Shown: positions 5,135-49,399, numbered from the stretch's first letter. The stretch is DNA of 49,399 bases from Candidatus Liptonbacteria bacterium (GCA_016194445.1 JACQBP010000016.1:1-49399), one strand, 5' to 3'. Numbers and translations are program-made. Notes: generated by a model from the letters alone, not told the origin.

Positions 5135-5142
5135 TTTAGAAT

Positions 5143-6895: not shown

Positions 6896-6945
6896 TCTTG
6901 GTTACTCCCTTTGTCGGCGGTTTTGGTTATACACAGCACTAGTGT

Positions 6946-6974
6946 TTGACAGCAGTTCTTCACGGGACTATAAT
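6946..6974 (+). promoter_or_regulatory. sigma-70-type promoter of the arsR-led redox cluster
   Basis: Perfect TTGACA (6946-6951), a 17-nt spacer, then TATAAT (6969-6974). Confidence 0.6.
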
Positions 6975-7012
6975 TTAAGCACTTGCATAATTACTTAATA
7001 TCTTCATTATTC

Positions 7013-7336
7013 ATGTTAACCAAGAAGCAGATAATCGATATCAAGTCTGAAATAGGGACCACAACTACTACCTTCCCGCTGGTATTCCAGGCGCTTGGAG
7101 ATTCCGGGCGATTTAATATCTTCCGGCTGCTCATGGAGCACCACGATATCTGCGTGACCGACGTTGCCAACGTATTCGGCATCACCGTCTCTGCCGCTTC
7201 CCAACAGCTACGGGTACTCGAGCGGCTGGGACTCGTGATTAAAATGCGGATGGGGCAGATGGTTTGTTACGAAATAAATGAGGAAAATGTGATCACGAAG
7301 CAGTTAGTCAAATTACTAAAAGAGTCAAACAAATAA
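7013..7336 (+). CDS. ArsR/SmtB-family metalloregulator (winged HTH)
   Basis: ALGDSGRFNIFRLL..CVTDVANVFGITVSAASQQLRVLERLGLV is the typical ArsR HTH. ATG 7013 is preferred because the track's TTG 6983 lies only about 9 nt after the -10 box. Confidence 0.8.
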   Translation: MLTKKQIIDIKSEIGTTTTTFPLVFQALGDSGRFNIFRLLMEHHDICVTDVANVFGITVSAASQQLRVLERLGLVIKMRMGQMVCYEINEENVITKQLVKLLKESNK

Positions 7337-7360
7337 TTTTATTAACCAATTTATACAACT

Positions 7361-7597
7361 ATGGCCAAAGTAACCATTTATACAACTCCGACTTGCGTGT
7401 ATTGCAAAATGACAAAGGCATTTTTCAAAGAGAACAACATTCAGTATGAAGAAAAAGATGTATCAACTGATCGCGCTGCGGCGGATGAAATGATTCAAAA
7501 ATCCGGCCAGATGGGTGTGCCGGTCATTGATATTGATGGGCAGTTGATCGTCGGTTTCGATAAAGAAGGATTATCGCGGCTGTTGAATATAAAATAA
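7361..7597 (+). CDS. glutaredoxin-like protein (NrdH/YruB type)
   Basis: 78 aa with a CVYC active site after beta-1 and GVPVIDIDG. Confidence 0.85.
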   Translation: MAKVTIYTTPTCVYCKMTKAFFKENNIQYEEKDVSTDRAAADEMIQKSGQMGVPVIDIDGQLIVGFDKEGLSRLLNIK

Positions 7598-20504: not shown

Positions 20505-20524
20505 CCTGCCTGCCGGCAGGCAGG
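20505..20524. repeat. 20-bp perfect palindrome CCTGCCTGCCGGCAGGCAGG (copy A)
   Basis: Read directly. Near-identical copies occur at 36404-36426 and 39775-39794. Confidence 0.85.
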
Positions 20525-20530
20525 GAAAAA

Positions 20531-36276: not shown

Positions 36277-36524
36277 GAAAAACCCGCTTTTGCATAACCA
36301 TAAGCGAAGCCGAGTTAGCCCGCCGGAGACGGGTCCGCCTTAGGCGGAAAATTAATGAGCGAGGCGAGAATTTTTCGTCAGCAAATCGAATGGTCGGAAA
36401 ATCCCTGCCTGCCTGCGGCAGGCAGGCCGAAGGGAGGAACGGGCACCGTTCGATTTACCCGAAAAATTAAGCCAAGCGAATATAATTTCTCTAGGCGGAG
36501 TGGGTTAGAAAAGGCGGGTTTTTC
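36277..36524. repeat. about 248-bp long imperfect palindrome (MITE-like) containing palindrome copy B at 36404-36426
   Basis: The ends GAAAAACCCGC...GCGGGTTTTTC pair. Internal arms also pair (AATTTTTCGTCAGCAAATCGAATGGTCGG versus the reverse complement AATTTTTCGGGTAAATCGAACGGTGCC). Confidence 0.75.
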
Positions 36525-36594
36525 GACCGCCCTATCCACATTTGCATCGCCAGATTATTTCCCATAAAATTATTTAACGTAATCACTCATCGAA

Positions 36595-36679
36595 CTCGAA
36601 TTAAAACTCGAATAACACAAATCAATCTCGAATAAAAAGATTCGTGAAAATTCGTGAGTCTATTCGTGTTTGATTCGTG
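36595..36679 (+). promoter_or_regulatory. array of 3x CTCGAAT followed by 4x ATTCGTG heptamers upstream of pdaD
   Basis: CTCGAAT at 36595, 36607 and 36627. ATTCGTG at 36640, 36650, 36662 and 36673, with 10-12-bp phasing. Confidence 0.5.
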
Positions 36680-36689
36680 CGACATTCCT

Positions 36690-37313
36690 ATGGCAGACGA
36701 ACCCAATCTCTCACCTCAAACCAGTCCCAGCCAACCCAACGGCATCACCCTCCCCGGGCAGAGTGTCGTCATTTTGCCCAAGAAAATTTTCTTCACCAAA
36801 GGCGTCGGCGTCCACAAAGAACGCCTCGGCTCTTTTGAGATGGCCCTTCGGATGGCCGGCATTGAGTTTTTGAACCTCATTCTAGTTTCGAGTATCTTTC
36901 CGCCCGGTTGCAAAAAAATTAGCAAAGAAGAAGGGGTGAAACTCGTCCAGCCCGGCGAAGTCATCTTCTGTGTTTATGATCGACTCGAAACCAACGAACC
37001 CAACCGCCTCATCGCCGCCTCCGTCGGCGCCGCTATCCCCGCCGACGAAACCCAGTATGGCTACCTCTCTGAACACCATGGCTTTGGTGAAACCGAAGAA
37101 AAAGCGGGGGAGTACGCCGAAGACCTGGCCGCCTCCATGCTTGCCACCACCCTCGGCATCGAATTTGACCCCAACACCGCCTGGAGTGAACGCGAACAGC
37201 TCTATAAAATGAGCGGCAAGATCGTCAAAACCATGAACATGACCCAGTCTGCCATCGGCCACAAAGACGGCCTCTGGACCACCGTTTTTGCCGCCGGGGT
37301 GTTTATTACCTGA
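36690..37313 (+). CDS. pdaD: pyruvoyl-dependent arginine decarboxylase
   Basis: FFTKGVGVH...[13 protein letters not shown] contains the self-cleavage VSS site, and the C-terminal pattern is PdaD-like. Confidence 0.85.
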
Positions 37314-37388
37314 TTTTGACTTTACCCTGAATTTGCTATACTAAAACCACTAGAAAAAGGTCGATCGACGCACCTAAGTAATAAAAGT

Positions 37389-37664
37389 ATGACTAAAGCA
37401 GGTTTAATAGAGGCGGTTATGAAGGCCGCTGGTATTGAAACAAAAGCTCAATCGGAAAGAATCGTTGAGGCTGTCCTCGACACCATCACTAAAACCATGA
37501 GCCGAGGCGAAGACGTCGCCATCACTGGTTTCGGCACCTTCCGGGTCGCCAAAAGGGCTGCTCGAGAAGGCCGCAACCCCAAAACTGGAGAAAAAATCCA
37601 CATTGCGGCTTCAGTGAAGCCCAAATTCCGAGCCGGCAAAGCCCTCAAAGAAGCGGTGATGTAG
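37389..37664 (+). CDS. hup: DNA-binding protein HU
   Basis: 91 aa with GFGTFRVAKRAAREGRNPKTGEKI. Confidence 0.9.
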   Translation: MTKAGLIEAVMKAAGIETKAQSERIVEAVLDTITKTMSRGEDVAITGFGTFRVAKRAAREGRNPKTGEKIHIAASVKPKFRAGKALKEAVM

Positions 37665-37697
37665 AGTGATCTAAATTTCACTTTGCGTTCAAATCAG

Positions 37698-37724
37698 AAA
37701 AAAGCCCCATCTCGGGGTTTTTTT
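37698..37724. terminator. bidirectional terminator between hup and the convergent gene
   Basis: AAAAAAGCCCC-ATCTC-GGGGTTTTTTT. Confidence 0.7.
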
Positions 37725-37732
37725 CTATCTGA

Positions 37733-38515
37733 TTATTGCAAAACATTTTTACCCATCACTTCACTTAGTTCAAAAAAGTTTTCGTAGACAGCCGCTAAAG
37801 CTTGGAGAGAATTTTTAATCGTGTCGAGGTTACTCTCTGAAGAGCTCAAATCTTGGATATCAGTTTTCGCTTTCTGGTTTGCTTCTTTAGCTTGACTCAA
37901 ACTCGCTTCGGCTTTTTTAATAATTTCTAAACTATTTCCTTTGCTATCGTCCGCCTTAGCCTCCTCTACAACTTTTTTGATTTCGCCAAGTCTGCCCTCC
38001 GCTAAACTTATAAATTGTTGGCTATTCGCCCAAGTCATTAGATCAACTGCTTTCGTCACTAAGTAGGCGTAATTTCCTGCTCGCCACTCTGCCAACTTTT
38101 TTGCTAAATTTTTAGTTCCCCAGAGACCCAAGTCGCCCAAGCTCACCGCCTGCGACTGATAATAAACTACTGCCTGGTCAATTTGCGAAACCAACTTTCC
38201 TCTTACGTTGATCATGTCTAGGTCACTCACCATTGTCGCCGTCAGCTTCGATTTAAGTGTATTCGCTTCTTGAACCGCGCAGTTTAGGATTTTACCGAGT
38301 ATTCCTTGTCGCAATTTGAGCTCTATCTTAATCTTATCCAAATACTCCAACTTTGGATCGTTTCTGATCGCTTCAATAGCGCTCAAATCTCCCGCTTGAA
38401 ATTTACATCCTCCCTGATTATCCACCCTCCCCGCTCCCAAAGCGAACCCAGCACTCATTAAAAAAAGGCCCACCCCGAGCCCCAAAACCGCTATTCCTTT
38501 ATTAAATTTTGTCAT
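37733..38515 (-). CDS. secreted coiled-coil protein, function unknown
   Basis: 260 aa with a signal peptide. It is the last gene of the sigma/anti-sigma-like operon. Confidence 0.6.
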   Translation of the reverse strand: MTKFNKGIAVLGLGVGLFLMSAGFALGAGRVDNQGGCKFQAGDLSAIEAIRNDPKLEYLDKIKIELKLRQGILGKILNCAVQEANTLKSKLTATMVSDLDMINVRGKLVSQIDQAVVYYQSQAVSLGDLGLWGTKNLAKKLAEWRAGNYAYLVTKAVDLMTWANSQQFISLAEGRLGEIKKVVEEAKADDSKGNSLEIIKKAEASLSQAKEANQKAKTDIQDLSSSESNLDTIKNSLQALAAVYENFFELSEVMGKNVLQ

Positions 38516-38518
38516 CAG

Positions 38519-39031
38519 TTACTCAGAAATTTTTTCTAAAACTTGGTCGATCGTCATTGCTTCGCTGCCTTCTTTGGCGCCGGTAGAACTATCAGTCTTA
38601 ACCGTTTCTTGCCCAACCTTTTTCGGACTAACCTCCGGTAGTTTCTTGTTTGTTTTCAGTTCGTTGATTTTAGCGTAAGTTGCGGTCGTGGTTTGGTTAA
38701 TCAGGTCTAGTTGGGTTTTATAATCTAAACTCGTCAGTTTTATCTGAATGTCGATCGCTTGAGCTTCCACTCCGAGGGTTAAAGGGTCGAGCACTCTAAG
38801 TGGCAGAGATGGTGAAAATCTTATCACCGAAAACCCCACAAAAATTATTAGAATCACCGTGAGCGTAATCATGCTCGCGGTGCTAAATCTCACGGTCGGC
38901 CAGAGCCATTGCCAAGCTGAAAGCCGCGGAGCTTTTTCTGGTCCGCTCAAAATTTCCATCTTTGATCTCCGGCTGTATAGAGGGTCCGGTTCGATCTTTT
39001 TAAATTCTTTTAATAGGTCTAAAAGATCCAT
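38519..39031 (-). CDS. single-pass membrane protein, possible anti-sigma factor
   Basis: 170 aa with a central TM helix. Lies directly downstream of the ECF sigma gene. The call rests on position only. Confidence 0.45.
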   Translation of the reverse strand: MDLLDLLKEFKKIEPDPLYSRRSKMEILSGPEKAPRLSAWQWLWPTVRFSTASMITLTVILIIFVGFSVIRFSPSLPLRVLDPLTLGVEAQAIDIQIKLTSLDYKTQLDLINQTTTATYAKINELKTNKKLPEVSPKKVGQETVKTDSSTGAKEGSEAMTIDQVLEKISE

Positions 39032-39044
39032 TGTTCTTAAAAAT

Positions 39045-39581
39045 TTATTTTATCAAACCTTCTTTTAATTTTTTTATGGCTCGGTGTTGGATGAGTTTCA
39101 CTGCTCCTTCGCTCTTACCTATAGCTGCCGCCGTTTCTTTAATCGACAAGTCTTCCACAAATCGCATTACTACGACATCTTGATAATCTTGGTCTAGAGT
39201 TTGAATCGCCAAACGCACTTGCTCTAAACGCAGACTATCGTCGAGGCCGAACTGCGCGCTCGCCGGCACTGCAAAATAGTTAGGGTCCACCTCTTCGATT
39301 GCCATCGTCGCTTTTGAAGTTCGGTAATAATCTACCACCTGATTCTTAGCAATGCGGTATAACCAACTCGAAAAAGGGAATCCTAAATCTTTGTAATGGC
39401 TGACATTTTGCCAAGCGCTTAAAAAGACTTGGTGAGTGAGGTCCTCGGCTTCCTCACGCCGGCCTACTTTAATCAATACAAACCTATAAATCTTAGGTTG
39501 GTAAAAGTCATAAAGGAGGCCGAAAGCCGAGGCCTCACCCTGGATGGCTTTCTTTATTATAGAGTTCTCACCATCTAGCAT
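39045..39581 (-). CDS. ECF-type sigma-70 family RNA polymerase sigma factor
   Basis: Region 2 EDLTHQVFLSAWQ and region 4 LSIKETAAAIGKSEGAVKLIQHRAIKKL. Confidence 0.85.
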   Translation of the reverse strand: MLDGENSIIKKAIQGEASAFGLLYDFYQPKIYRFVLIKVGRREEAEDLTHQVFLSAWQNVSHYKDLGFPFSSWLYRIAKNQVVDYYRTSKATMAIEEVDPNYFAVPASAQFGLDDSLRLEQVRLAIQTLDQDYQDVVVMRFVEDLSIKETAAAIGKSEGAVKLIQHRAIKKLKEGLIK

Positions 39582-39715
39582 AGGTAACGAATATATGTAG
39601 GTTTAGTTACGATAAAACCGCCTCGAAGGACCTTCAATCAAAATATCCCCCATTATAGGATTTTAGAGCCTTTTCGTCAAAACTGAACTAGTCTAAAGAT
39701 TGAGATTTCTCACTA

Positions 39716-40029
39716 GAGTATATTTATGACTTCGCTCGAACCTACTTTATTAAAAATCTCTGACCAAAGGAAGCCCTGCCTGCCGGTAGGCAGGCGCCCC
39801 GCCGCCGCTCGCTAACGCTCGCCCCACCAAAGAAAAGTTTTGTTTGCGGTTTTTGATTTGCGCGCGACCATTTTTTCTTCTAAAAGGAAAACAAAACTTT
39901 TCTTTGGTGTTCTGCTCTAAACGAGCAGGCGGCGGGACTGGCCTCTATTTTTGCTCGGGCGCGGCGGAATTCCCCCCACACCCCCCCTTCCGCCGCGCCC
40001 TCGCGCGATTAGACAAAAGTTGGTAGGTG
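39716..40029. repeat. left arm of the inverted repeat bracketing the AT-rich operon (about 101 bp of homology plus two palindromic insertions)
   Basis: The reverse complement aligns to 44905-45007 at about 90% by hand alignment, once 39775-39940 and 39958-40003 are removed. Confidence 0.85.
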
Positions 40030-40039
40030 TTATAGAGAA

Positions 40040-41449
40040 TTATAATCCCCTTCGTATTACCTTCGGTCCCGCAGAAGTGTCTCTAACCTCATACCCCTTT
40101 TTAATGATCTCTTGACGAACACGATCAGATTCCTCCCACTTATTGTCTTCTCTTAAATCTTCTCGTTTTTGAACAAGCACCCTAATTTCTTCTGGAATTT
40201 TCTCGGAGAGGAGATATCCAAGATTCAATCGTAAAACTTTATCAAACTCAAGAATTGCCGCTTTCTTCTGGGGGGTGAGAGGAGAATCAGCAATTTTCCA
40301 TAACAACGCAATCGCTTGAGGAGTGTTAAAATCATTGTTTATACAACGCTTGAATTCCTGAAGTTCTTGCTTGTCTGGAGAAACTTTTTTATTTCCAAGG
40401 ATAGAAACTTTTTCCCGAAGCGAAAGCAGTGCTTTCTGGGCTCCCCGCAAGCTAGGCCATGTAAAATTAAGGCCTGCGCGATAGTGAGAGGTTAGAACTA
40501 GATAGCGGAAAGCGAGTGGGTCATACCCACGATCCACGATGTCTTGTAAAGTAACAAAGTTATGCTCACTTTTTGCCATCTTTTTTCCATTGACCGTTAA
40601 AAAGGCTACATGCATCCAGTAACGCACGAATTGTTTTCCCGTAGCCGCTTCTGATTGCGCTATTTCGTTGGTATGATGAACAGGAATGTGATCAATGCCG
40701 CCAGTGTGAATATCAATTGTCTCTCCCAAATATTTCATGGCCATGGCACTGCACTCAATGTGCCAGCCAGGGAATCCAATTCCCCAAGGACTTTGCCACT
40801 CCATCTGTCTCTTTCTGTCTTTAGGAGAGAATTTCCAGAGCGCAAAATCAGTTATTTTATTTTTTTCTCCGATATCTACTCGAGCACCCGGCTTAATGCC
40901 TGCAACACCTAATCGCGCGAGATGCCCATAGTTGGATAACCGAGAAGTGTCAAAGTAAACACCATCAGAAGTCAGATAAGTATATCCAGCTTTCTCGAGC
41001 CGTTGAATCAAAGTAATTTGTTCACTGATATGGTCTGTAGCTTTGCTCCAAACAGAAGGGGGTTTAATGTTGAGAGCAAGGAGATTTTGCTTGAAAATCC
41101 CGGTGTATAATTCGGCAATTTCAAATGCAGAACGTTTCTGTTTCCGGGCACTCAACTCCATTTTGTCTTCACCGGAATCAGCATCAGATGTTAAATGGCC
41201 AACATCTGTTATATTGATCACCTGTTTGACTTTATACCCATTAAACTCAAGTGTGTTGCGAAGGACATCCGCAACAATGTAGGCGCGAAGATTCCCGATG
41301 TGCGGATAGTCATACACCGTAGGCCCGCAGGTGTACATTTTAACCCTGCCAGGCTTAAGCGGAACAAATAGCCGCTCCTTTCTCTCATATGTATCAAAGA
41401 GATAAATTGAGCCCGATACGCTCTTTCTTTTTTTCTGATTTATGTTCAT
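40040..41449 (-). CDS. cysS: cysteinyl-tRNA synthetase
   Basis: 469 aa with HIGN, KMAKS, the zinc ligands CGPTVYD / WHIECS / HHTNEIAQSEA, and the DALR-2 region. Confidence 0.9.
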   Translation of the reverse strand: MNINQKKRKSVSGSIYLFDTYERKERLFVPLKPGRVKMYTCGPTVYDYPHIGNLRAYIVADVLRNTLEFNGYKVKQVINITDVGHLTSDADSGEDKMELSARKQKRSAFEIAELYTGIFKQNLLALNIKPPSVWSKATDHISEQITLIQRLEKAGYTYLTSDGVYFDTSRLSNYGHLARLGVAGIKPGARVDIGEKNKITDFALWKFSPKDRKRQMEWQSPWGIGFPGWHIECSAMAMKYLGETIDIHTGGIDHIPVHHTNEIAQSEAATGKQFVRYWMHVAFLTVNGKKMAKSEHNFVTLQDIVDRGYDPLAFRYLVLTSHYRAGLNFTWPSLRGAQKALLSLREKVSILGNKKVSPDKQELQEFKRCINNDFNTPQAIALLWKIADSPLTPQKKAAILEFDKVLRLNLGYLLSEKIPEEIRVLVQKREDLREDNKWEESDRVRQEIIKKGYEVRDTSAGPKVIRRGL

Positions 41450-41454
41450 AAATA

Positions 41455-42252
41455 TTATTCAATTATTTCTCTTCTTTTGAATTTACAAAAAAACATAATC
41501 ATAAACCTATTTTTGGGCAATAAAATATCAATAATTCTCCCTATTGTTTTAATCATCCAGCGAGGAGATTCTAGCGGCAGAGGACTGCCAAAATACTCTA
41601 TTTTGAGCCATTCAATATTCTTCCCACTTCCTTCGGCGGCATTTATCACTAAATCGGCTAAGATTCTATTTTTGTAAAAATGTTCCGTTCCCAATCTATA
41701 ACCCGATATAGGGCCAGGGAAAAATTTTAACACCCACGCTTTAATAGTGGGTCCAGAATAGAAATTCGGTACCCCAAAAGTGATGATTCCATCGGATTTT
41801 GTAACTCGCATCATTTCTTCTAGAATCATTTTGATAGCTGAAGGCTTATAGTGCTCAATGACACCTGTATTCCATACAAAATCAAAAGTTTCTTTTTGAA
41901 ACGGTATTTCGAATATATTACCAATCACAAATTTTACATCCTTAACTTTGAATTTTTGGGCTATATGTTTTGCATATTCTAGGGCTGCCGGAGATATATC
42001 AAGTAATGTTCTATCAATATTACCGCGAAGAAGAATTGAAGATCTTCCTGAACCGCTTCCTGCCTCCAGTAAACTGGAATACTTGTACTTGTTAAATAAA
42101 GATTCCACAAAACTGGTAATTTTTTTATAGTAATCTTCATCCCAAAAGGACGAAAAATTACTTCGGCTTTTATTCCTTTTGTTAAGCTTATTCTCAAATA
42201 TATTATTCCAAGAATCTCTTTCGTGCTCTATTGTCTTCTGCAAATCTTCCAT
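41455..42252 (-). CDS. class I SAM-dependent methyltransferase
   Basis: Motif I LLEAGSGSGRSS and post-I/II motifs (DFVWNTGVIEH). Confidence 0.8.
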   Translation of the reverse strand: MEDLQKTIEHERDSWNNIFENKLNKRNKSRSNFSSFWDEDYYKKITSFVESLFNKYKYSSLLEAGSGSGRSSILLRGNIDRTLLDISPAALEYAKHIAQKFKVKDVKFVIGNIFEIPFQKETFDFVWNTGVIEHYKPSAIKMILEEMMRVTKSDGIITFGVPNFYSGPTIKAWVLKFFPGPISGYRLGTEHFYKNRILADLVINAAEGSGKNIEWLKIEYFGSPLPLESPRWMIKTIGRIIDILLPKNRFMIMFFCKFKRREIIE

Positions 42253-42261
42253 ACTATTGGG

Positions 42262-43143
42262 TCAGGTTAAACGATTATTGATTATTTTTAATCTCTCTTG
42301 AAAACTCTTAAATTTTTCTGGTTTGTCAGACAAAAGACGCTCAAATAAATAAATTATTTTTCTTACACTTGCATCATCTTTCAATTCCTTATTCAGATTA
42401 GCAGGAATAACAAATTTTTTCAGTTCCGGGAAAACCGCTTCCAAGAGTCCGACTTTTTGAAGTTTTTTAATAAATAAATAGCGGTTGCTAGATTTAATGA
42501 TCGCTTGAAGTATATTAAAGTAGGCATGCTCCCGAGCGTAAACACCGTGAAAGTAATCCTTGTGCCTCCAAGATTTTATCTTTTTTGACAAGGCTTTTAA
42601 AAATGAAAAAAGATTTTTATCTTTACAAAAATCGACATTGAAACGAGTGCAAAGATTAACCAATCTCGATGCTAAAATAAAAGGATTCTCTCCGTTAATC
42701 GAAACGATCGGCGCTAATTTTCTCTTTCTTAAGGATTCAATAGAATCATATGGATCGTATATCCTGCCAGATGGAAAATGCCAAAATATACTTTCCCAAT
42801 TAAAATGACCTAAATAATTAATATCTTTAACAATCCCTATGTCATAACGAATCGATTTTTTAGAAACTATGATTTGGAATACTTTGTTAAACTTTAAGTA
42901 ATAGGAACGACTTTTAATGATGGAGAATCTCCGGGACTTTAAAATTTTCAGAACAGACCTAAATTTTTTTATATCGCCGATGATAGCCAAATCGTAATCA
43001 TTAACCTCAAAATTAACACCTAAATCTTCAGCAATTTCTTTGTAGGTAATACTGCCGCCAAGCCAAAAATCATTTAAGCCGCTTTCTTTTGCTATGCGTT
43101 GGAGAATAAAGAACTGCTTTCTATTGACATGGGTAATACTCAT
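42262..43143 (-). CDS. hypothetical protein (weak GGS...DYD nucleotidyltransferase-like motif)
   Basis: 293 aa. WLGGSITYKEI...NDYDLAIIGD resembles a Pol-beta/CCA-enzyme head motif, but the spacing is longer than the canonical one. Confidence 0.6.
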   Translation of the reverse strand: MSITHVNRKQFFILQRIAKESGLNDFWLGGSITYKEIAEDLGVNFEVNDYDLAIIGDIKKFRSVLKILKSRRFSIIKSRSYYLKFNKVFQIIVSKKSIRYDIGIVKDINYLGHFNWESIFWHFPSGRIYDPYDSIESLRKRKLAPIVSINGENPFILASRLVNLCTRFNVDFCKDKNLFSFLKALSKKIKSWRHKDYFHGVYAREHAYFNILQAIIKSSNRYLFIKKLQKVGLLEAVFPELKKFVIPANLNKELKDDASVRKIIYLFERLLSDKPEKFKSFQERLKIINNRLT

Positions 43144-44808
43144 TTATTTTTAAGAGTGCGGAAACTAATCAGCTGGCTTTTAAGTTTATCCACTTCATTT
43201 TTGACATGCTCGGAATTCGCGTGAGGTGAAACAAGACAATATTTTAATGCAGATACAGCTTTGCCAGATTTTGTTTTGTAAAAACCTTTCGAGAACGAAC
43301 AGCCCAATCGACTGATATCTCCGCTATTACTTTTGAGACAAAATTCATAAAACGACTTTACTTCTTCATTAAGATGGTCCAGTAATTTATCATCTCCACT
43401 AACAGATGACAGAAACTCTTTCCAATTAATTCTTTTATTACCGGGAGATAGTAAAACCATAGTGTTAAATCCCAATGCGTGAGGATTCCCTACTAAAAAA
43501 TAATCCCCCTCAGAAATTAAATCTCTAAATACTTTTGTACAGAAAATTTGATTTGCAAGTAATCGCCTAAAGCCATTCTTTCCCATTACTAATAGTGAGC
43601 CTACGGCCGAAAGAGCTTTACCTGCGGAGCGAGATGTTTCCAAAGTGATATCTGAGGGATCTTCCAAAGACCAATCGTTGCCGAGATGGTGTGTATCAAT
43701 GCCTCTTTCCTTTTTAGAGAGCAGGAGCAGATCATTACTATTGTTTGAAACAAAAAGACCACACGGTGTTGGACAACCGCCCAATCCCTTGTGAAAATCT
43801 ACTCCCCACGAATCGGCCTTTCTTACTTGATATTTTCTTTTGAACTGTTCCTTGATGATGGGTAATATTTCCGCTGGAATTTTTAGAGGATTTAATTCAA
43901 AGTCGTATCCATTAAACACCAGCCAAATCCATCCGATGACAGAATCAACGTGAATGTGTGGAGAAAAAGAAAGGTTGTACTCTTTTATAAGCCTATCTCT
44001 TAAATCTATAAACGCGCCAATATCATCAATTGCAAAATCATAGAATGGGCCCCCGTTTATTTGAAATCCAGCAATGACTCCGCCCTTTTCAATTATAGAT
44101 CTTGTTTTTATCTCTGCGTCTTCAATGATGGACCTGCTTTCTTCGTCTGCTTTGATTTGCACTAAACGGTCGATGCCTATGCCAAGCCAATCTCCAACCG
44201 TTTTATGAGAGAAGTGGGCGTTGGCAGTAATCATGACGTGCAGGTTAGAAGGAGCGCCAATCTTTCCTGCGTTAGGGACAGCATTATTGATAGCAAGTTT
44301 CATGGCATACATGTTCGAAGCTGTTCCCCCAAAAGAGAATAGCGCCCTAACTTTGTCTTTGGGCAAATCTATGAGATCAGCCATCATTTCGGAGATAACT
44401 TTCTCCGCAAGCAAGCAAGCAATTACCCGCAAAGTCGGTACTTATGTTATGGATATTGATTTCTTGGCCCAAACTTAAAAGAGCCTGTGCAACTGCATTA
44501 ACTGGAGCACAGATGTTATATTGCAATTCTGGACTACGCCAATTTGGTGCTCCAGGAAGGAATTTTTTAATCGTTTCGGATATTACGTCGTTAGGATGCA
44601 TTCCATCGTCTGGAATTTTATTCGGAATTTTAGTATCGTTATCTGGTGATTTAGGAATCCACGGCTCACTTGAATTCTTGAAAACTTTCCGCAATGTTTG
44701 AAGACCGAAATTAAAAAGCTTCGAGGATGTTTTAGATCCAATCAAAGGCGGGAACAAGAAATCTATTTGTCTTTTATGGGCAGAGTTCCATAAGTATTTC
44801 TTTTTCAT
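43140..44808 (-). pseudogene. group II PLP-dependent amino-acid decarboxylase, reading frame broken inside a (GCAA)4 tract
   Basis: N-terminal 143 aa lie in the 44808 frame and the remaining 430 aa in the 44432 frame. Motifs are FGGTASNMYAM, HIHVDSVIGW and VDFHKGLG (the PLP lysine). Removing one 4-nt unit gives ...FAGNCLLAEKVISEMMADL. Confidence 0.8.
44407..44422. repeat. tetranucleotide repeat (GCAA)4, which is (TTGC)4 on the coding strand
   Basis: Read directly: cGCAAGCAAGCAAGCAAtt. Confidence 0.9.
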
Positions 44809-44904
44809 ATTCTGGTTCGAAAAATTTTTCGTCTGAAGCGTCTATGATTTTAGGATACATCAAAAACGATGAAAACTCAATATTAAAATTAAGGACGGTT
44901 CATA

Positions 44905-45007
44905 CACCTACCAACTTTTGTCTAATCGCACGAACAAAAATAGAGGCGGCTTCCTTTCGTCAAGAATTTTTGATAAAGTAAGTTCGAGCGCGGTCGTAAA
45001 TATACTC
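44905..45007. repeat. right arm of the inverted repeat bracketing the AT-rich operon (empty-site version)
   Basis: CACCTACCAACTTTTGTCTAATCGC... is the reverse complement of 40005-40029, and the homology continues to 45007. Confidence 0.85.
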
Positions 45008-45011
45008 CAAA

Positions 45012-45142
45012 ATTAGACTTTCCGATTTTTGACCGACGAATTCGTGGGCGGCACAAAGTGCCGCCCGTTGGTTTTCTGGCGTAGAATCAGAGCCGCTTGG
45101 CGCGCGGAAGCGCGCCTCGCGGTTGGCCAAGACGAGGTTCGA
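45012..45142. repeat. left 131-bp inverted repeat with two GC hairpins (45046-45066, 45099-45116)
   Basis: GGGCGGCAC-AAA-GTGCCGCCC and GGCGCGC-GGAA-GCGCGCC. Confidence 0.85.
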
Positions 45143-45166
45143 AATCCCTTGCGGTTTCGTATTTGT

Positions 45167-45196
45167 TTGCCCAACAGAAAGAATTTTTGCTATAAT
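45167..45196 (+). promoter_or_regulatory. candidate promoter of the recombinase gene
   Basis: TTGCCC, an 18-nt spacer, then TGcTATAAT. Confidence 0.45.
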
Positions 45197-45304
45197 GACA
45201 ATGTAACCAATCCCGCAAAGTTGTCTTTTTTGATGGCCGTCTCAGTCAGTTCAAGGCAACTTGGATTGGTTACAACCGGGGCGGCCTTTAAAGTTTTCAA
45301 ATTT

Positions 45305-46367
45305 ATGGATAATCTATCGCAAAAATTCTTTTTGTATGCCCGCAAGTCCACTGATGTGGAAGATAAGCAGGTGCGTTCTATTGAAGACCAAATTACAGAA
45401 TTGCGCGCCTTTGCCAAACAAGAAAATCTCAACATTATTGATGAGTTGATGGAGAAACAATCAGCCAAAATTCCGGGCCGTCCCATTTTCAACGATATGC
45501 TCAATCGGATAGAGAGTGGCGAAGCAAACGGAATTTTGGCCTGGCATCCTGATAGATTAGCGCGCAATTCTGTGGACGGTGGACAAATAATTTATCTTTT
45601 GGATTGCGGGCATTTGGCGATGTTGAAATTTCCCACATTTTGGATGGAAAATACCTCACAAGGAAAATTTATGCTCAACATCGCCTTTGGGCAAAGCAAA
45701 TACTACGTGGATTCTCTTTCTGAAAATACCAAAAGAGGGTTGCGCCAAAAAGTAAAACGAGGCGAATATCCAAGCCTTGCGCCTGTTGGATATATCAACG
45801 ACTCGCGCAATAAATCTGTTGTCGTGGATAAAAAGCAAGCTCCGGTGGTTCGCAAGGCTTTTGAGCTATACGCGCAAGGCGATCAAAGACTGGAAGATAT
45901 TGGAGAATTTTTGGCGCAACACAAATTAGTTTCAAAAAGCGGAAAGAGAATCCACATCTCAAGAGCGACTTTTATCCTCTCCAATCCTTTTTACACCGGA
46001 CTATTTCGCTACACTGGCGAAATCTACGAAGGCAAGCACGAGCCAATCTGCTTTTGTTCAAACAAACCAAGAAAGAATCAAAGTCATTGCCACTAAACTC
46101 CAGCGACTTCTTGATGGCTACTTGGAACAGGATATTGACCGAGAAATCTACCGCACCGAAAAAGCAAAACTCCTTTCCGAAAAGAAGTCGCTGGAGGAGC
46201 AAATGACCAATCTTGAACAAAAGCAGAATGGTTGGCTCGAACCTGCGTCTAGCCAACCGCGAGGCGCGCCTCTGCGCGCCGAGCGGAGAGGATTTCCCCC
46301 CCACAAAACCAATGGGCGGCACGAAGTGCCGCCCACCGATTCGTCGGTCAAAAATCGGAAAGTCTAA
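45305..46367 (+). pseudogene. large serine recombinase with an intact catalytic N-terminus but an internal deletion plus frameshift
   Basis: MDNLSQKFFLYARKSTDVEDKQVRSIEDQ... is the catalytic Ser region. After ..GKHEP (about 46045) the zinc-ribbon region seen in the 20531 copy is missing. The coiled-coil part (..KLQRLLDGYLEQDIDREIY..WLEP) continues in another frame. Confidence 0.75.
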
Positions 46368-46368
46368 T
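46238..46368. repeat. right 131-bp inverted repeat with two GC hairpins (46263-46280, 46314-46334)
   Basis: GGCGCGC-CTCT-GCGCGCC and GGGCGGCAC-GAA-GTGCCGCCC. The stems are identical to the left copy and the loops differ. Confidence 0.85.
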
Positions 46369-46637
46369 CCTGGAGCGGGTTTGTGAAGGACGTTAGAACT
46401 TTTTTCACTTCCCCAGATTCTGCATCCGAGAAGATGGCGACATCACTTCGTCAGGTTTTGGGTAAGCCGGTCATCGCTGATTCACTCTAAGGGTAGCTGA
46501 TTCTTGGCTTGTAACAAGAGGCTGATTCTTGTCGGTTGCGACAGGTTACGCGCCCACAAGAATCAAGACTGGGCCCGGAGGTCGTTCCTTCGGCATGCGG
46601 CATTGCCGGGCTTTCCCCGAGCTTGTTGATCACCGAT

Positions 46638-46787
46638 CTAGTTGAACAGTCTGGTGACAAGGAGAAGAGCAGCGAGTGCAAGCGCAATCACCAATGCCGC
46701 CCACCCGTCTATCTCTACGGTGATCCGGCTTTTCCCGAGGGACTCGGACTTAAGAACTCTGATCGTCGAACTTTTCTTGGGCTTCAT
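46638..46787 (-). CDS. 49-aa ORF with a C-terminal TM helix (not in the ORF track)
   Basis: MKPKKSSTIRVLKSESLGKSRITVEIDGWAALVIALALAALLLVTRLFN. ATG preceded by GAGAGGAAAT. Confidence 0.35.
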   Translation of the reverse strand: MKPKKSSTIRVLKSESLGKSRITVEIDGWAALVIALALAALLLVTRLFN

Positions 46788-47338
46788 ATTTCCTCTCAGT
46801 CATAGCTCTCGCGGAATCTTAGAGCCAAGTGTCAATTTCGAGTGTCCTCACGCAGGCGCCGAAATTCCCGGCTCATTTGAGAACACGTGTTCAAGTCCGA
46901 CGGGAAGATCCGCTCGGCACCATAAACCGAAAAGGGTCAATATGTCAGGTGTCGTGGCGGTGAGAGTTCGCCACCTATGCAGGCCCACGCAACGAAGCTG
47001 AAGATCTCTCAACTTCGAGCAGCTAGCTATACGCTAACCCATCGGCGAATTGTTGTCAAGCCAGGGGTTCTTCTGGGAAGCGAATTCCAAACGAATACGT
47101 AACTCAATCCGAGAGTCGGTATTTCCACAGAGATTTTTAACAGCTAATCTGACAGAGCGAGGTCGGATCTTGTTGGTCCCCTCGGTCGGGGTGTGGTTGT
47201 CCGTTCCGCAAGATTAGAGTGCGGACACTCTGCCTAAGATTCGGCCATCTGAAATGTGGCACGACTTGCGTTGAGGAGCGTGATCTGCGAGGAGACTTAT
47301 GGCCGAGTTGACGAAGAGTTCTCGGCGGAGCGGGCTCG

Positions 47339-47950
47339 TTATCTCTTGAGCTGGCGCGTCCAGCGCAAGCAATACTGCTCTCCGATCATTGGTGCCGTGA
47401 TATTCCACGATATGCGGTTTCTTGCCAGCGCACGAGGTCCTTGGGCGGGATGCTTCGTGGAATTGCCAAAGGACACGTCTCCGTGGAAGTCACTTAACTC
47501 CATATTCGAAGTACCTTGGATCTCTATCAGAGCTGAACGGGTAGTCTTTGTGACGGTAAAGACAATATCCTCTTTGTCCTGGAGATACGAGTCGAGGAGG
47601 TCGCAGTTCCAGTCTCGCGTGAAAAACGCCTCGCATGGTAGAGGGTCTTCAAAGACCGTGGGTATTGCGTACGCCCCGCCACGCTTTTCCTTCCGGCCAA
47701 TATCAACGCGCCCTGGGTGGGATTCCATGCTATCCCAGTCGATCTTCCCGTTGTCGTCGGCGCGAAGATGACGGTCCCATATCTCCCTGATTCCCTCTCG
47801 GTGTGCGACAAGGACGTGGTGCTTCTTGAAAGTAACGCGGTGTCCAGCGTCATCCTGATAGATCACTTCAATCTTGACGTTATGTACAGTGTACTCGCGC
47901 TCATTAAGTTCACTGTCCCACCTGGGACTGGCCAGAACTCCGCCCGACAT
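47339..47950 (-). CDS. hypothetical protein (203 aa)
   Basis: ATG 47950 (MSGGVLASPRW...). The upstream extension of the track ORF reads into the IS terminal repeat and is discarded. Confidence 0.5.
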   Translation of the reverse strand: MSGGVLASPRWDSELNEREYTVHNVKIEVIYQDDAGHRVTFKKHHVLVAHREGIREIWDRHLRADDNGKIDWDSMESHPGRVDIGRKEKRGGAYAIPTVFEDPLPCEAFFTRDWNCDLLDSYLQDKEDIVFTVTKTTRSALIEIQGTSNMELSDFHGDVSFGNSTKHPAQGPRALARNRISWNITAPMIGEQYCLRWTRQLKR

Positions 47951-47974
47951 GATCCGATTGACATTTGACGCTAG

Positions 47975-49289
47975 CAGGTTGCTGAAAAAACCCTTGTGAC
48001 TGCTGTCCCATCCTTCTTTTCGCCGATTTGCATCGGATGGTGGTCTGACCCGGCGGTTTTGCGTCCGTTGATGTGCTGGTTTTCGTTCCGCTGACGCGCC
48101 GTCCACTTCTGATCATCAGGTCGGAATTGGTTGCGGACACAGCTTCGCCATGCGCAGCAGCATGTGGGCGACCACTGTCAGCTTGGTGTGCAAGGTCACG
48201 CGCTCGGCGCCCCGATAACGGGTCCGGCGCAATCCGCCCACCGTCTTCAGCCACCCGAAGCCTTCCTCGATGCGCTTGCGCACCCGCTGGCTGAGCGCAT
48301 AGCCGATACTCCGCGTCGTGCGCCCGTCCAGTCCCGGTGTCCGCCGGCCCTCCACCATCGCGATGTGCGGCGTGATACACTGCAACCACAACGCCTCGAC
48401 AAACGCCTTCGTATGGTATCCCTTGTCCGCCCCGACCGAGCGCGGACAGCCGCGCCGTCGGCGTTGGCACTGGAGCAACGCCAGCGCTGCCTCCCGCTCT
48501 CCCGTTCCCGTGGGGTCATGCACCTTCACATCGACGATCAGGCCGTGACGGTTCTCCATCAAGAGCGATACCCCGTACGACAGCTTCGCTTCCTTGCCCG
48601 CCCCTTTGCGCGCCAGTCGGGCGTCCGGATCCGTCGTGCTGCGGTGTGTCTGGTTGGTGCGCGTCTGCCCATGGAAGTCCACGGTCACGTTCCCCGGATC
48701 GTCGGCGTCAACACCCTGATCGGGCGCGTCGGTGGGACGGAAACTCTTCAACGACGCCCACGCCTCCACCAGTGTCCCGTCCACTGTGAAGTGCTCATCG
48801 GATAACAGCCCCGCCGCCTGCGCCCGCGTCACCACCGCCTGCAAAAACCGCCCCGCCACGTCATGCTGCAACAGACGGTCCCGGTTCTTCGTAAACGTCG
48901 TCGCATCAAACGACCGCTCCTCCAGGCTCATCCCCAAAAACCACCGAAACAGAATGTTGTAGTCCAGCATCTCGCAGAACAGCCGCTCCGAACGGATCGT
49001 GTATAGGGCGATCAGCAGCTGCGCCTTCAACAGCCGCTCCGGCGGAATCGACGGACGCCCCTCCTTCGCGTACATCCGGTCAAACGTCCGGGACAACGAC
49101 CCCAGCGCCTCATCCGCCATCGTCTTGATTCGGCGTAAGGGATGGTCCTGAGGCACCCGCTCCTCCGGCGACAAGTAGCTGAACATGTATCCCTGATTCT
49201 CCTCGCGACCCCGCATCGCACCCTCCTCGGCTGATGGCCATCACGATCACCATACCGCCACCAACCAGCAAGGGTTTTTCAGCAACCTG
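47975..49289 (-). mobile_element. IS5-family insertion sequence (1315 bp)
   Basis: Terminal inverted repeats CAGGTTGCTGAAAAAACCCTTG (47975-47996) and CAAGGGTTTTTCAGCAACCTG (49269-49289). Flanks are CTAG and GTAG. A single DDE transposase ORF. Confidence 0.8.
48116..49216 (-). CDS. IS5-family DDE transposase
   Basis: 366 aa. The N-terminus ...YMFSYLSPEERVPQDHPLRRIK..LFCEMLDYNILFRWFLG is typical of IS4/IS5-superfamily (DUF772) transposases. ATG preceded by GAGGAGGG. Confidence 0.9.
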   Translation of the reverse strand: MRGREENQGYMFSYLSPEERVPQDHPLRRIKTMADEALGSLSRTFDRMYAKEGRPSIPPERLLKAQLLIALYTIRSERLFCEMLDYNILFRWFLGMSLEERSFDATTFTKNRDRLLQHDVAGRFLQAVVTRAQAAGLLSDEHFTVDGTLVEAWASLKSFRPTDAPDQGVDADDPGNVTVDFHGQTRTNQTHRSTTDPDARLARKGAGKEAKLSYGVSLLMENRHGLIVDVKVHDPTGTGEREAALALLQCQRRRRGCPRSVGADKGYHTKAFVEALWLQCITPHIAMVEGRRTPGLDGRTTRSIGYALSQRVRKRIEEGFGWLKTVGGLRRTRYRGAERVTLHTKLTVVAHMLLRMAKLCPQPIPT

Positions 49290-49399
49290 GTAGGCGTTGA
49301 ACACGGAGGGATTCAATCAGCTGAGGCGCTGATGCTGGCACGACATTTCATGTATTCACAAGTGTACCTCCATCCGGTTCGAAAGAGCTACGATTTTCA

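Follow-up and report, generated by a model that had tools for sequence, protein, structure and literature searches.

A probable decayed large-serine-recombinase element with nested inverted repeats and a four-gene cargo in Candidatus Liptonbacteria

Genes and inverted repeats of the locus

The window analyzed is the whole 49,399-nucleotide stretch from a Candidatus Liptonbacteria bacterium (GCA_016194445.1, JACQBP010000016.1:1-49399). Its features between 39672 and 46410 are a four-gene operon and a serine-recombinase module, each bracketed by inverted repeats (Table 1). F designates the left extension adjoining the recombinase module, F' is the inverted copy of F, and IR-L and IR-R are the inner inverted-repeat arms. 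The cysS product scores 420 bits against TIGR00435 (cutoff 340), the 293-aa protein has no Pfam, NCBIfam or PHROGs match, and gene 1 is broken by a frameshift near 44380-44432. Operon G+C is 0.38 compared to 0.45 for the window, with 1-kb windows of 0.32 to 0.43. An earlier note on this DNA had the direction right, but the contrast is milder than its hand counts of 23-38% implied.

Table 1. Features of the element in the window
Feature	Coordinates	Strand	Basis or remark
Flank outside junction J1 (B' side), degenerate IR-start-like remnant	39672..39715	-	TTTAGACTAGTTCAGTTTTGAC vs ATTAGACTTTCCGATTTTTGAC, by-eye alignment
F', full-length inverted copy of F	39716..40030	-	Full length as in relatives L012, L062, L015
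Cargo gene 4, cysteine--tRNA ligase (cysS)	40040..41449	-	Pfam tRNA-synt_1e, E 2e-95
Cargo gene 3, class I SAM-dependent methyltransferase	41455..42252	-	Pfam Methyltransf_31/11/25
Cargo gene 2, 293-aa protein of unknown function	42262..43143	-	
Cargo gene 1, PLP-dependent decarboxylase-like	43140..44808	-	Frame translations; weak Pyridoxal_deC and decarboxylase NCBIfam matches
F, left extension adjoining recombinase module	44904..45007	+	Two internal deletions shorten the window copy
IR-L, starts with CTCCA core (J2, internal attP-type junction)	45005..45142	+	Pairs with 46237-46375
Extended -10-like promoter element TGCTATAAT	45188..45196	+	Upstream of recombinase; kept in L012, L015, L036
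Recombinase pseudogene part 1, resolvase catalytic and recombinase domains	45305..46096	+	95% identical to P0001
Recombinase pseudogene part 2, coiled-coil region	46047..46243	+	Different frame
IR-R, recombinase C-terminal region; ends in core TGGAG (J3)	46237..46375	+	GSNLRLANREAR...QNQWAA..GQKSESLILE
Decayed F-like or tRNA-3'-like remnant	46376..46410	-	AAAAAAGTTCTAACGTCCTTCACAAACCCG

Both of the nested repeat pairs described in the earlier note exist. The inner arms are 83.6% identical over 140 nt, and the outer pair consists of three blocks: 39716-39775/44948-45007 (85%), 39941-39961/44927-44947 (90%) and 40001-40030/44904-44933 (97%). Arm lengths are 104-315 nt, part of the sequence is protein-coding, and no further copies of either repeat occur within the window. 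Several details of the earlier description had to be revised. The outer right arm and the recombinase repeat, placed 4 nt apart, are contiguous and overlap at the CTCCA core (45005-45009). The left arm is full length and has not gained two insertions; instead, the right arm has suffered two deletions. The ATTAGAC/GTCTAAT heptamers assigned to all four junctions number 4 in the window, where chance alone would give 4.8, and the four occurrences are two homologous positions, each doubled by a repeat.

F' contains two hairpins (39825-39852/39882-39909 and 39944-39969/39988-40013, the latter with loop GGGGGGGTGTGGGGGG), and its end at 39716 carries, in antisense, the native C-terminal tail of the recombinase, which serves at the same time as a T-loop of pseudo-tRNA type, forming the P arm of attP. 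In the window copy of F, the final ~30 nt are this P arm, AAAGTAAGTTCGAGCGCGGTCGTAAATATA, and the antisense of the F end codes the native tail YIYDRARTYFIKNS followed by a stop. IR-L is an inverted, non-translated copy of the 3'-terminal coding region of the recombinase, and IR-R has an additional frameshift in a C-run near 46300. The remnant beyond IR-R has GTTC 25 nt from N73 by hand count, which is F-like spacing, and neither ARAGORN nor Rfam detects an intact tRNA gene after it. At the other end, the earlier note saw a piece of the recombinase repeat at 39672-39696. It aligns by eye, but the J1 flank is below BLAST detection. Clear IR or recombinase remnants occupy the equivalent position in L011, L017 and L047, and the flank is probably what serial insertion has spared of the IR of an older element.

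The recombinase is an inactivated large serine recombinase

Part 1 of the gene retains the YARKSTD motif with the catalytic serine (PF00239, E 2e-21) and the recombinase domain (PF07508, E 1.1e-8). The frame is broken at ~46048, the site of a 360-bp deletion relative to L015 that took out the zinc ribbon. Relatives are ~440-460 aa with recombinase and zinc-ribbon domains. Because the zinc ribbon (PF13408) is lost here and kept in P0003, P0006, P0010 and other full-length relatives, the gene is a pseudogene of a large serine recombinase (LSR) and not intact, which corrects the earlier note's "serine-recombinase gene". Part 2 stops where a further deletion, of ~97 bp, has occurred between direct repeats of GGCTCGAACC (WLEP/GSNL). 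The TGCTATAAT element at 45188..45196 is a candidate recombinase promoter element. The family matches PHROG 95 integrase with E 4e-86 compared to 1e-19 for the DNA-invertase PHROG, and its nearest curated families are CcrB and XisF (CcrB best, E 1.8e-38). No close relatives were found in 2.9 million viral contigs, indicating the family is not phage-borne.

With both deletions, the frameshifts, arms only ~84% identical, two deletions in F and the tRNA gone, the window copy is dead. Inversion or movement is now unlikely with the recombinase inactivated and the arms decayed, and the module is now a fixed relic.

Related loci share the nested-repeat architecture

Eighty GTDB loci encoding an LSR of the window's family were surveyed. 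The earlier note had suggested searching relatives for the same repeats around the recombinase, and 67 of the 80 loci carry IRs at least 50 nt long (median 129 nt) on either side of it. Comparison of these CPR loci establishes a standard order in most of them: F', variable cargo, F, a 3-5 nt core, IR-L, the LSR gene, IR-R, core and tRNA 3' end. Across the family, inner arms are 114-185 nt and outer arms 86-304 nt. An inverted F' lies 1-5 kb from F in 15 of the 25 loci with enough flank (window counted), with F/F' identities of 89-100% in the related loci and 85-97% in the window. Contig L020 (4192 nt) is exactly F' through IR-R plus about 50 nt on either side.

The two arms of a locus evolve together. 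They are 100% identical in 37 loci and at least 95% identical in 53, the partner arm is nearer than any other locus's IR in 54/58 loci, and the median IR identity is 100% within a locus compared to 84.5% with the closest other locus. Homologous recombination or gene conversion is probably responsible for this homogenization.

The DNA between F' and F varies by locus, and its G+C is mostly below that of the locus. Examples are a DGR-like reverse transcriptase with a LamG protein, ArsR with ArsP, guaA, and a trp operon. The sole recurrent cargo gene is a small Xre HTH gene in 5/15 cargos, which adjoins F in 5/5 loci, showing that cargo orientation is constant among related elements. No replication genes were seen in the cargo. 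LSRs normally require a directionality factor for excision; the cargo holds no conserved candidate for one, the Xre HTH gene being present in only 5 of the 15. This organization is the signature of a site-specific, integrative LSR element with the operon as its cargo.

Elements abut tRNA 3' ends

In 45/61 evaluable loci, a convergent tRNA gene has its 3' end within a few nucleotides of the end of IR-R, and sixteen tRNA species are abutted. The recombinase is convergent on the tRNA in about 95% of loci and has the opposite orientation in a few (L009, L031). In clean J1 junctions, F' plus CAC, CACC or CTC runs directly into the trailer of a tRNA or a terminator hairpin (L001, L020, L049, L054, L072), and in L042 it runs into the next tRNA of the cluster. 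J1, J2 and J3 have only C-N73-C(CA) in common, the tRNA trailer is displaced to J1, and direct repeats are absent. These junctions have the form that conservative attP x attB recombination at a short common core, with no target-site duplication, would leave.

Several states of one tRNA-Arg(cct) gene, all differing from the core onward, were found in a single metagenome series. The gene is followed by an element of the window's family in L091, by a different element of the family in L094 and L095, by a similar element with only a recombinase remnant left in L096, and by non-element DNA in L097. The element family is very widespread in ultra-small (CPR/Patescibacteria) bacteria and inserts at tRNA gene ends.

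The repeats encode the recombinase C-terminus and resemble a tRNA end

Comparison of the loci reveals that IR-R is coding. It specifies the last 38-60 residues of the recombinase, and the ORF is open throughout with protein-like conservation. Where the ORF continues into antisense F, it encodes a conserved 13-14 aa tail, ...(A/I)RT(Y/F)F..N(S), with a stop at a fixed place and synonymous third-position changes. The tail read into tRNA is variable. The same coding design of IR and F tail is found for the L094 LSR, which is only 40% identical. Because IR-R and antisense F code the C-terminus, attP lies within the 3' end of the recombinase gene, and F-core-IR-L is a spare inverted copy of attP.

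F has GTTC 24 nt from N73 in 44/49 loci compared to 20 nt in real tRNAs, and the attP arms have partial dyad symmetry (GTAAAT...ATTTGAC). The T-loop mimic is thus 4 nt further outward, as expected for attP compared to attB. The zinc-ribbon-domain motif of the LI integrase is 5 bp nearer the center in attB than in attP (PMC3783163), and the difference between 4 nt and 5 bp counts against the fit.

Proposed mechanism and history of the window copy

Comparison alone suggests how the family would move. The free form would be a small circle of a recombinase segment and a cargo segment parted by two inverted 270-480 bp repeats (F + core + IR), each holding one attP site. The P arm would be the end of F, a mimic of the tRNA T-loop and acceptor end, the core would be C72-N73-C74 of the target tRNA, and the P' arm would be the start of IR. 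One attP copy would overlap the LSR gene 3' end, and the LSR would recombine this copy with the 3' end of a tRNA gene (attB), leaving the tRNA gene intact. After integration, IR-R would abut the tRNA, the tRNA trailer would be displaced to the far end and joined to F' there, the element would keep a second, intact attP (F-core-IR-L) in its interior, and the native recombinase tail would be swapped for tRNA-antisense codons. A search for circular contigs found none, and excision and the circle are therefore only inferred. An intact internal attP should be hazardous to the host, which counts against this explanation.

Window positions 39672-46410 are very probably an inactivated integrated copy of this mobile element family, which is common in CPR/Patescibacteria genomes. 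The nested repeats are what decay has left of a small mobile element with the four-gene operon as cargo. The window copy has since lost the zinc ribbon and reading frame of its recombinase, its repeats have diverged and the target tRNA has disappeared. J3 lacks a tRNA and the J1 flank is IR-like instead of a trailer, so the integration history needs an extra assumption: either elements inserted serially and then decayed, or the right flank is chimeric.

Alternative explanations

A composite transposon or two independent insertions, in which recombinase-bearing IS-like copies flank a resident operon and the left copy later became a stub, is an improbable origin. The left arm and the remnant at 39672-39715 do resemble the end of a second inverted copy, cysS is a housekeeping-type gene above its equivalog cutoff, and a recombinase 3' remnant lies beyond F' in L011. 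However, F' ends at the core in 15/15 loci with an F/F' pair, and a second-module origin would not reproducibly give the direct joins to a tRNA trailer or next tRNA seen in the clean cases. The IR-like DNA beyond F' in L011, L017 and L047 is a different IR type and fits serial insertion at the same tRNA better, the enclosed DNA is different at every locus with G+C usually below the surroundings, and the ends of contig L020 fall at J1 and J3 rather than enclosing a smaller unit. In a composite transposon the cargo lies between two full IS copies that each bring a transposase and terminal repeats, and a target-site duplication is generated. The composite layout mentioned in the earlier note was rejected because the distal repeat belongs to a second complete recombinase module in 0/15 loci and target duplication was not seen.

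An active Hin/Gin- or shufflon-like inversion switch, with the recombinase flipping its own gene and/or the operon to control expression, is less probable still, and very unlikely. It would account for a serine recombinase gene and an operon each bracketed by inverted repeats, and the long perfect repeats of relatives would allow flipping. The cargo segment is oppositely oriented in L094 and L095 (two samples), and the recombinase is reversed relative to the tRNA in L009 and L031. Against a switch, the window enzyme is frameshifted without its zinc ribbon between arms only ~84% identical, and the family is integrase-type by its PHROG and curated matches. Hin/Gin-type invertases are small (~190 aa) serine enzymes with a C-terminal HTH and short (~26 bp, hix-type) inverted crossover sites around a segment whose orientation governs the expression of a fixed target gene. 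The ~445-aa LSR and its partly coding arms of 100-315 nt do not match them or the layout that the earlier note invoked. Cargo is unrelated among loci, leaving no common regulated target, and resolved orientations are uniform with respect to both Xre and the tRNA. The L094/L095 difference could be an assembly choice over a perfect repeat of at least 147 nt; like the alternative arrangement across perfect repeats in L086, it could be an assembly ambiguity. A shufflon combines the tyrosine recombinase Rci with multiple ~19-bp sfx sites in alternative pilV 3' ends, and was rejected for a serine-type recombinase with no pilV-like target and just two repeat pairs. The earlier note's "invertible or mobile module" therefore stands as mobile, with repeats of this kind accompanying the recombinase family across dozens of unrelated assemblies, and not as invertible.

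That the repeats are chance or metagenome assembly artefacts is extremely unlikely: contigs frequently break at element repeats and the right end of the window (46.4-49.4 kb) is foreign in composition and may be a chimeric join, but the same architecture occurs in >60 independent assemblies from varied studies and assemblers, including inside contigs >100 kb, the window arms have diverged (84-97%) and are not collapsed duplicates, and window 36471-39899 is matched at 100% identity by an independent Logan contig.

Comparison with known systems

The mobile element family looks new. It is apparently undescribed, and literature searches gave no system with the same combination, in agreement with the earlier note. 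Serine integrases (phiC31, Bxb1, A118/LI) are similar in the set of resolvase catalytic, recombinase, zinc-ribbon and coiled-coil regions that intact relatives have, and in having a short common core with no target duplication, partly dyad-symmetric attP arms, and an outer recognition motif further out in attP than in attB. The present family differs in that it is not phage-borne, targets many different tRNA 3' ends instead of one locus, places attP in the integrase gene's own 3' end, and doubles attP as a long inverted repeat.

SCCmec/Ccr cassettes are also small cargo units that an LSR inserts at the 3' end of a conserved housekeeping gene, which is not inactivated, and they accrete serially (in tandem) at one site. 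Their target is rlmH, not tRNA genes, and SCC elements have neither nested long inverted repeats nor attP within a gene. The CcrB score of 132 bits against a cutoff of 900 indicates the present recombinase is not a Ccr, and together with the tRNA insertion sites rules out an SCC identity.

Tycheposons of Prochlorococcus are likewise small cargo elements that target tRNAs, accrete at these sites and equip streamlined genomes with flexible genes. Tyrosine integrases, each specific to one tRNA, are found in 910/937 of them (bioRxiv 10.1101/2020.12.28.424599). Tycheposons have hallmark replication genes and lack the quadripartite inverted-repeat layout. A tycheposon identity is ruled out by the serine-type integrase and the lack of a recurrent cargo gene other than Xre HTH.

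SSV-type ('suicidal') tyrosine integrases of archaea have the site inside the integrase's own gene, so that integration changes the gene, and also target tRNA genes; a review considers such self-disrupting recombinases exclusive to archaea (PMC8371274). SSV-type integration splits a tyrosine recombinase gene in two, whereas only the last 13-14 codons are exchanged here and the element retains the gene's 3' end once more as an inverted spare.

Hin/Gin/Cin invertases and Rci shufflons resemble the family in that inverted sites flank a segment adjoining or holding the recombinase gene. They differ in enzyme class and size, in site length and in having a common regulated target, and the evidence here is for tRNA-gene integration rather than switching. 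The yeast 2-micron plasmid and plastid quadripartite genomes resemble the inferred circle in form, having two unique segments and two long inverted repeats that evolve in concert and contain recombination sites. The 2-micron FLP is a tyrosine recombinase that acts on FRT x FRT in copy-number amplification, and neither replication genes nor circular molecules were seen in the present family.

Nested inverted repeats around the operon and the recombinase gene

A repeat search of 38.5-47.5 kb and a BLAST comparison of the arms with the entire window recovered both inverted-repeat pairs of the earlier note, one around an AT-rich operon and one around a serine recombinase gene, and revealed no additional copies of either repeat. 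The outer right arm is F, the extension on the left of the recombinase module, minus two internal stretches. The outer left arm is F', the inverted full-length copy of F beyond the cargo. The inner arms, IR-L and IR-R, enclose a gene with resolvase and recombinase domains. ATTAGAC, proposed in the same note as a common junction motif, is not enriched (4 matches in the window versus 4.8 expected), and the four matches are two homologous positions, each doubled by a repeat. Four minus-strand genes in the same orientation lie between the outer arms, and the G+C of this operon is 0.38 versus 0.45 for the window. Structured RNAs or tRNA fragments were rejected as the nature of the repeats, with no ARAGORN or Rfam match in 39.5-47 kb at gathering and E ≤ 10 thresholds; the T-loop-like strings in the repeats proved to be either coding sequence or att-arm mimicry.

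Two hairpins in F were seen directly in the alignment. The GC-rich hairpin with loop GGGGGGTGTGGGGGG also occurs in the F copies of related loci L001, L012, L045, L062, L086 and L094/L095. All 10 matches to this motif in the 687 kb searched (the window and related loci) fall within F or F' copies, even in elements with recombinases that are only 40% identical. The second hairpin has a 28-bp stem with paired, pairing-preserving differences among the window, L012, L015 and L062, and the independent Logan contig L083 stops exactly inside it. A GC-rich palindrome of ~20 nt, CTGCCTGCCGGCAGGCAGG, is an extra insert within F' that is missing from the F of L012, and it recurs at the truncation point of a second recombinase in the window. 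It may be a small palindromic insertion element.

Features of the window and of related loci (F, left extension of the recombinase module; F', its inverted copy; IR, arms around the recombinase gene)
Locus	Feature	Position	Strand	Remark
Window	Second recombinase	20530-21994	+	45% identical to P0010, a full-length relative
Window	tRNA-Ser(gct)	21890-21979	-	
Window	Palindrome CTGCCTGCCGGCAGGCAGG	20505-20525; 39775-39794		
Window	Outer left arm (F')	39716-40030		inverted, full length
Window	Outer right arm (F)	44904-45007		two deletions
Window	Outer pair, block 1	39716-39775 / 44948-45007		85%
Window	Outer pair, block 2	39941-39961 / 44927-44947		90%
Window	Outer pair, block 3	40001-40030 / 44904-44933		97%
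Window	28-bp-stem hairpin in F'	39825-39909		
Window	GC-rich hairpin, loop GGGGGGTGTGGGGGG	39944-40013		
Window	cysS		-	passes TIGR00435 cutoff
Window	SAM-dependent methyltransferase		-	
Window	293-aa protein		-	function unknown
Window	PLP-decarboxylase-like gene	44377-44808 + 43140-44432	-	overlapping ORFs, frameshift at 44380-44432
Window	Inner pair (IR-L / IR-R)	45005-45142 / 46237-46375		83.6% over 140 nt
Window	Hairpin-forming stretch	45236-45300		
Window	Right flank	46380-49399		G+C 52-64%
Window	IS5-family DDE transposase	48116-49216	-	~65% DNA identity to Rhizobiales plasmid copies
L005	Reverse transcriptase + LamG-domain target-like protein	2673-5271		DGR-like
L045	GMP synthase	3871-5397		
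L093	trpD/C/F/B block	1939-5680		after long leader
L026	Module with real tRNA genes on both sides	5754-7581		Val/Leu; arms 81-82%
L068	Module with real tRNA genes on both sides	5587-7560		Met + tRNA fragment; arms 81-82%

The window recombinase is inactivated

Damage was mapped by protein alignment to full-length relatives of ~440-460 aa and by DNA comparison with L015. A 360-bp deletion takes out the zinc-ribbon region and the frame is lost at ~46048, a ~97-bp deletion lies between two GGCTCGAACC direct repeats (WLEP...FGSNL), and another frameshift falls within the right repeat. The gene is a dead large serine recombinase (LSR). The right repeat is its 3'-terminal coding region (GSNLRLANREAR...KSESLILE), not spacer DNA.

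A conserved hairpin-forming stretch (ATGGCCGTC...GGCGGCC) sits between promoter-like TGCTATAAT and the recombinase start codon. It is found at the equivalent position in L012, L015, L031 and L036, has no Rfam match, and may be a regulatory 5' leader.

The nested layout is standard in the recombinase family

Relatives of the recombinase number 3,378 proteins at E ≤ 1e-10; among the matches listed, identity to the query is 66-95% and source names span several CPR phyla. At least 551 loci in species-representative genomes encode a relative (551 of the 598 candidate stretches listed), and 80 fetched loci were used for detailed comparison. The relatives with the same repeats that the earlier note proposed to look for were found: inverted repeats of at least 50 nt surround the recombinase gene in 67 of the 80 loci, with a median length of 129 nt. 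The arms are 100% identical in 37 of the fetched loci and at least 95% identical in 53. Median arm identity within a locus is 100% versus 84.5% to the closest other locus, and in 54 of 58 loci an arm is closest to its own partner. The arms evolve in concert, for which homogenisation by homologous recombination or gene conversion would be the simplest idea. Arm divergence and recombinase inactivation form a mixed pattern, for example 89% arm identity with an intact recombinase in L003 and 81-82% in loci with tRNAs on both sides, and no correlation is claimed.

A convergent tRNA gene shares ~4 nt of its 3' end with the outer end of the right arm in 45 of the 61 loci that could be evaluated; 16 tRNA species are represented among these genes. 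In most of the remaining loci the tRNA is slightly farther off because the detectable repeat is shortened by a contig end. Close relatives occupy different tRNAs, such as tRNA-Glu in L001 and tRNA-Leu in L049. To the left of IR-L, F is a conserved extension of 100-300 nt whose final ~30 nt (AAAATAGGTTCGAGC...GTAAATATA) resemble a tRNA T-loop and acceptor strand and are followed by C-N73-CCA, identical to the end of the real tRNA at the opposite side. F' (86-304 nt) lies 1-5 kb leftward in 15 of the 25 loci with enough flank, the window included. F and F' are 89-100% identical in related loci and 85-97% in the window, and F' terminates at the 3-5-nt core in all 15 loci. Since F' recurs with a core-terminated end, the nested arrangement described in the earlier note is the family standard, F' - cargo - F - core - IR-L - recombinase - IR-R - core - tRNA.

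Cargo differs in every locus and its G+C is usually below that of the surroundings. Besides the genes in the table, cargos include ArsR with an ArsP permease, an rRNA-adenine-dimethylase-like methyltransferase, DUF2207 with LemA, an SDH-type protease, and an APH-kinase with an HTH protein. The sole recurrent gene is a small Xre-type HTH adjoining F (5 of 15 loci); neither a replication gene nor a conserved excisionase was found in the cargos of the 15 loci. The biosynthetic and hypervariation functions in L093, L005 and L045 are not typical of mobile cargo in CPR genomes. A phage origin was rejected: a viral-contig scan gave only two matches at 25% identity, and such contigs contain practically no members of the family.

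Junctions point to integration at tRNA 3' ends

At the far junction, the outer end of F', F' is followed by CAC, CACC or CTC and then a tRNA trailer with a terminator-like hairpin in L001, L020, L049, L054 and L072, and by the next tRNA of the cluster in L042. In L011, L017, L047 and, weakly, the window, an IR or recombinase 3' remnant of a different, older element follows instead, as serial insertion at one tRNA predicts. One tRNA-Arg(cct) gene in a single metagenome series has different 3' sequences, each diverging exactly at the core: this family in L091, a 40%-identical member with the same layout in L094 and L095, similar sequence with only a recombinase remnant in L096, and non-element DNA without a recombinase in L097. 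These junctions support site-specific integration at the tRNA 3' end, as read by comparison of loci. BLAST of the far-junction flanks found no unoccupied tRNA among the fetched loci, and a look-up of the adjacent sigma-factor protein for the empty site of the window gave nothing but a contig that matches the window at 100% identity and stops within a hairpin at 39899; an identical contig is present in sample SRR12113410. Contig L020 consists of exactly one element with ~50 nt of flank at either end. Contigs typically stop k-4 nt left of IR-L (~50 nt in SPAdes-named and ~137 nt in k141 contigs) because F and F' form a perfect repeat. Terminal overlaps of a circular form occur in 0 of 25 complete short contigs.

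The F-core-IR site is the putative attP and the tRNA gene 3' end the putative attB. In real tRNAs, GTTC(GA) precedes the discriminator base by 20 nt; in F the spacing is 24 nt in 44 of 49 loci. In LI integrase, the zinc-ribbon-domain motif is 5 bp nearer the centre in attB than in attP (PMC3783163); the direction of the shift agrees and its size is close. A partial dyad, GTAAAT...ATTTGAC, surrounds the core in F-core-IR. Core and discriminator assignments were read directly from flank sequences, automatic trinucleotide extraction by regex being unreliable. CTC-core elements are at Gly, Thr and Cys tRNAs, CAC-core elements at Val, Leu, Ile, Lys, some Glu and two Gly tRNAs, and TAC-core elements at Glu tRNAs. 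The core matches positions 72-74 of the target tRNA, which is expected if the crossover dinucleotide lies there.

The recombinase gene ends across the putative attP

In essentially all loci, no stop interrupts the ORF within IR-R, and conservation there is protein-like (SNLxLxxRxxR...WAALRAAH..GKxPESLILV). When the IR is read on into antisense F, the attP configuration, the ORF stops after 13-14 codons in nearly every locus. This native tail has a conserved motif (e.g. YLYDFARTYFIKNS, RLFDEIRTFFERN and SLLYQVRTYFQNR, each followed by the stop) and synonymous third-position differences such as CGA ACC TAT versus CGA ACT TAC (flanks read by eye). The 40%-identical L094 enzyme has the same design, ending in ...FARTYFERKS and a stop. 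The conserved tail across the IR into antisense F therefore argues that the native gene end is encoded across attP. In integrated copies the reading frame instead runs into tRNA-antisense sequence, giving tails that differ in length and composition. Integration would swap the last 13-14 residues of the recombinase, and F-core-IR-L would constitute an inverted spare of the gene 3' end with an intact attP.

Alternative arrangements

The recombinase module has a tRNA in the left flank with the right flank not seen in L009 and L031, tRNAs on both sides in L026 and L068, and F on both sides in L062, L073 and L093. Assembly ambiguity does not explain the F/F loci, since their arms differ in type or share only 88-91% identity. 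All three would be expected from an internal live attP or from integration via either attP copy. The L026 and L068 modules look like products of recombination between the internal attP and a second tRNA gene. The window resembles the F/F class: the 35 nt to the right of IR-R have F-like motif spacing (25 nt, counted by eye), and no tRNA is detectable there by ARAGORN or Rfam. L086 encodes a recombinase protein identical to that of L087 and L091 and differs from them in arrangement across perfect repeats, and a ~1.9-kb cargo segment lies in opposite orientations in L094 and L095 between perfect repeats of at least 147 nt. These cases could reflect circles or segment flipping, or else assembler choice across perfect repeats.

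The window copy is a relic

The dead recombinase, ~84% arms, the two deletions in F, the lack of a target tRNA, the extra 20-nt palindrome in F' and an IR-like vestige beyond F' together mark the window copy as a relic. The cysS operon is element cargo: cysS and its neighbours came in with the element and are now effectively fixed in the chromosome by its decay. To the right (46.4-49.4 kb), ORFs between the element end and the IS5 transposase have no family matches, and this segment is either DNA of foreign origin or the product of a chimeric assembly join at the end of the element.

The second recombinase of the broad family is N-terminally truncated, with the first ~60 aa and the catalytic serine missing. 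At the C-terminus (...IGSNHIL...) its reading frame continues into the antisense strand of tRNA-Ser(gct), and it lacks flanking long inverted repeats. It is apparently a relic of another related element.

Discussion

CPR/Patescibacteria comprise a large share of bacterial diversity and have tiny genomes, and gene exchange among them is poorly understood. The family is abundant, and the adaptive benefit of its operons is obvious (cysS, GMP synthase, tryptophan biosynthesis, arsenic resistance and diversity-generating retroelements); it could be one of the main routes by which genes move among these bacteria. It also explains recurrent contig breaks beside tRNA genes in CPR assemblies. Open-access papers on CPR/Patescibacteria serine recombinases or tRNA-targeting LSR elements yielded no description of the family.

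The mechanism proposed here is drawn throughout from comparison among loci. Replacement of the tail by tRNA-antisense codons might attenuate or redirect the integrase. Flipping of the recombinase segment between its repeats would restore the full-length enzyme from the spare F-core-IR-L, a switch that would stand in for a directionality factor. Through the internal live attP, cassettes could be exchanged and chromosomes rearranged between tRNA genes, a possibility that L026 and L068 fit. T-loop mimicry would open many tRNA genes with a common discriminator base to one lineage. That attP-in-gene tail replacement and the spare inverted 3' end as a switch, with the effects of the internal live attP and of T-loop mimicry as consequences, make the family a new bacterial mobile-element design is a tentative proposal that may well prove wrong. 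A serine integrase recognising the universal T-arm and acceptor end of tRNAs would be a possible start for broad integrases with predictable targets.

Integrases with a site inside their own gene are exclusive to archaea according to a review of archaeal tyrosine recombinases (PMC8371274). The present family would carry the principle of an integrase that alters its own gene from archaeal tyrosine to bacterial serine integrases. Compared with the archaeal enzymes, the effect here is milder, a swap of the tail, and the enzyme class is different.
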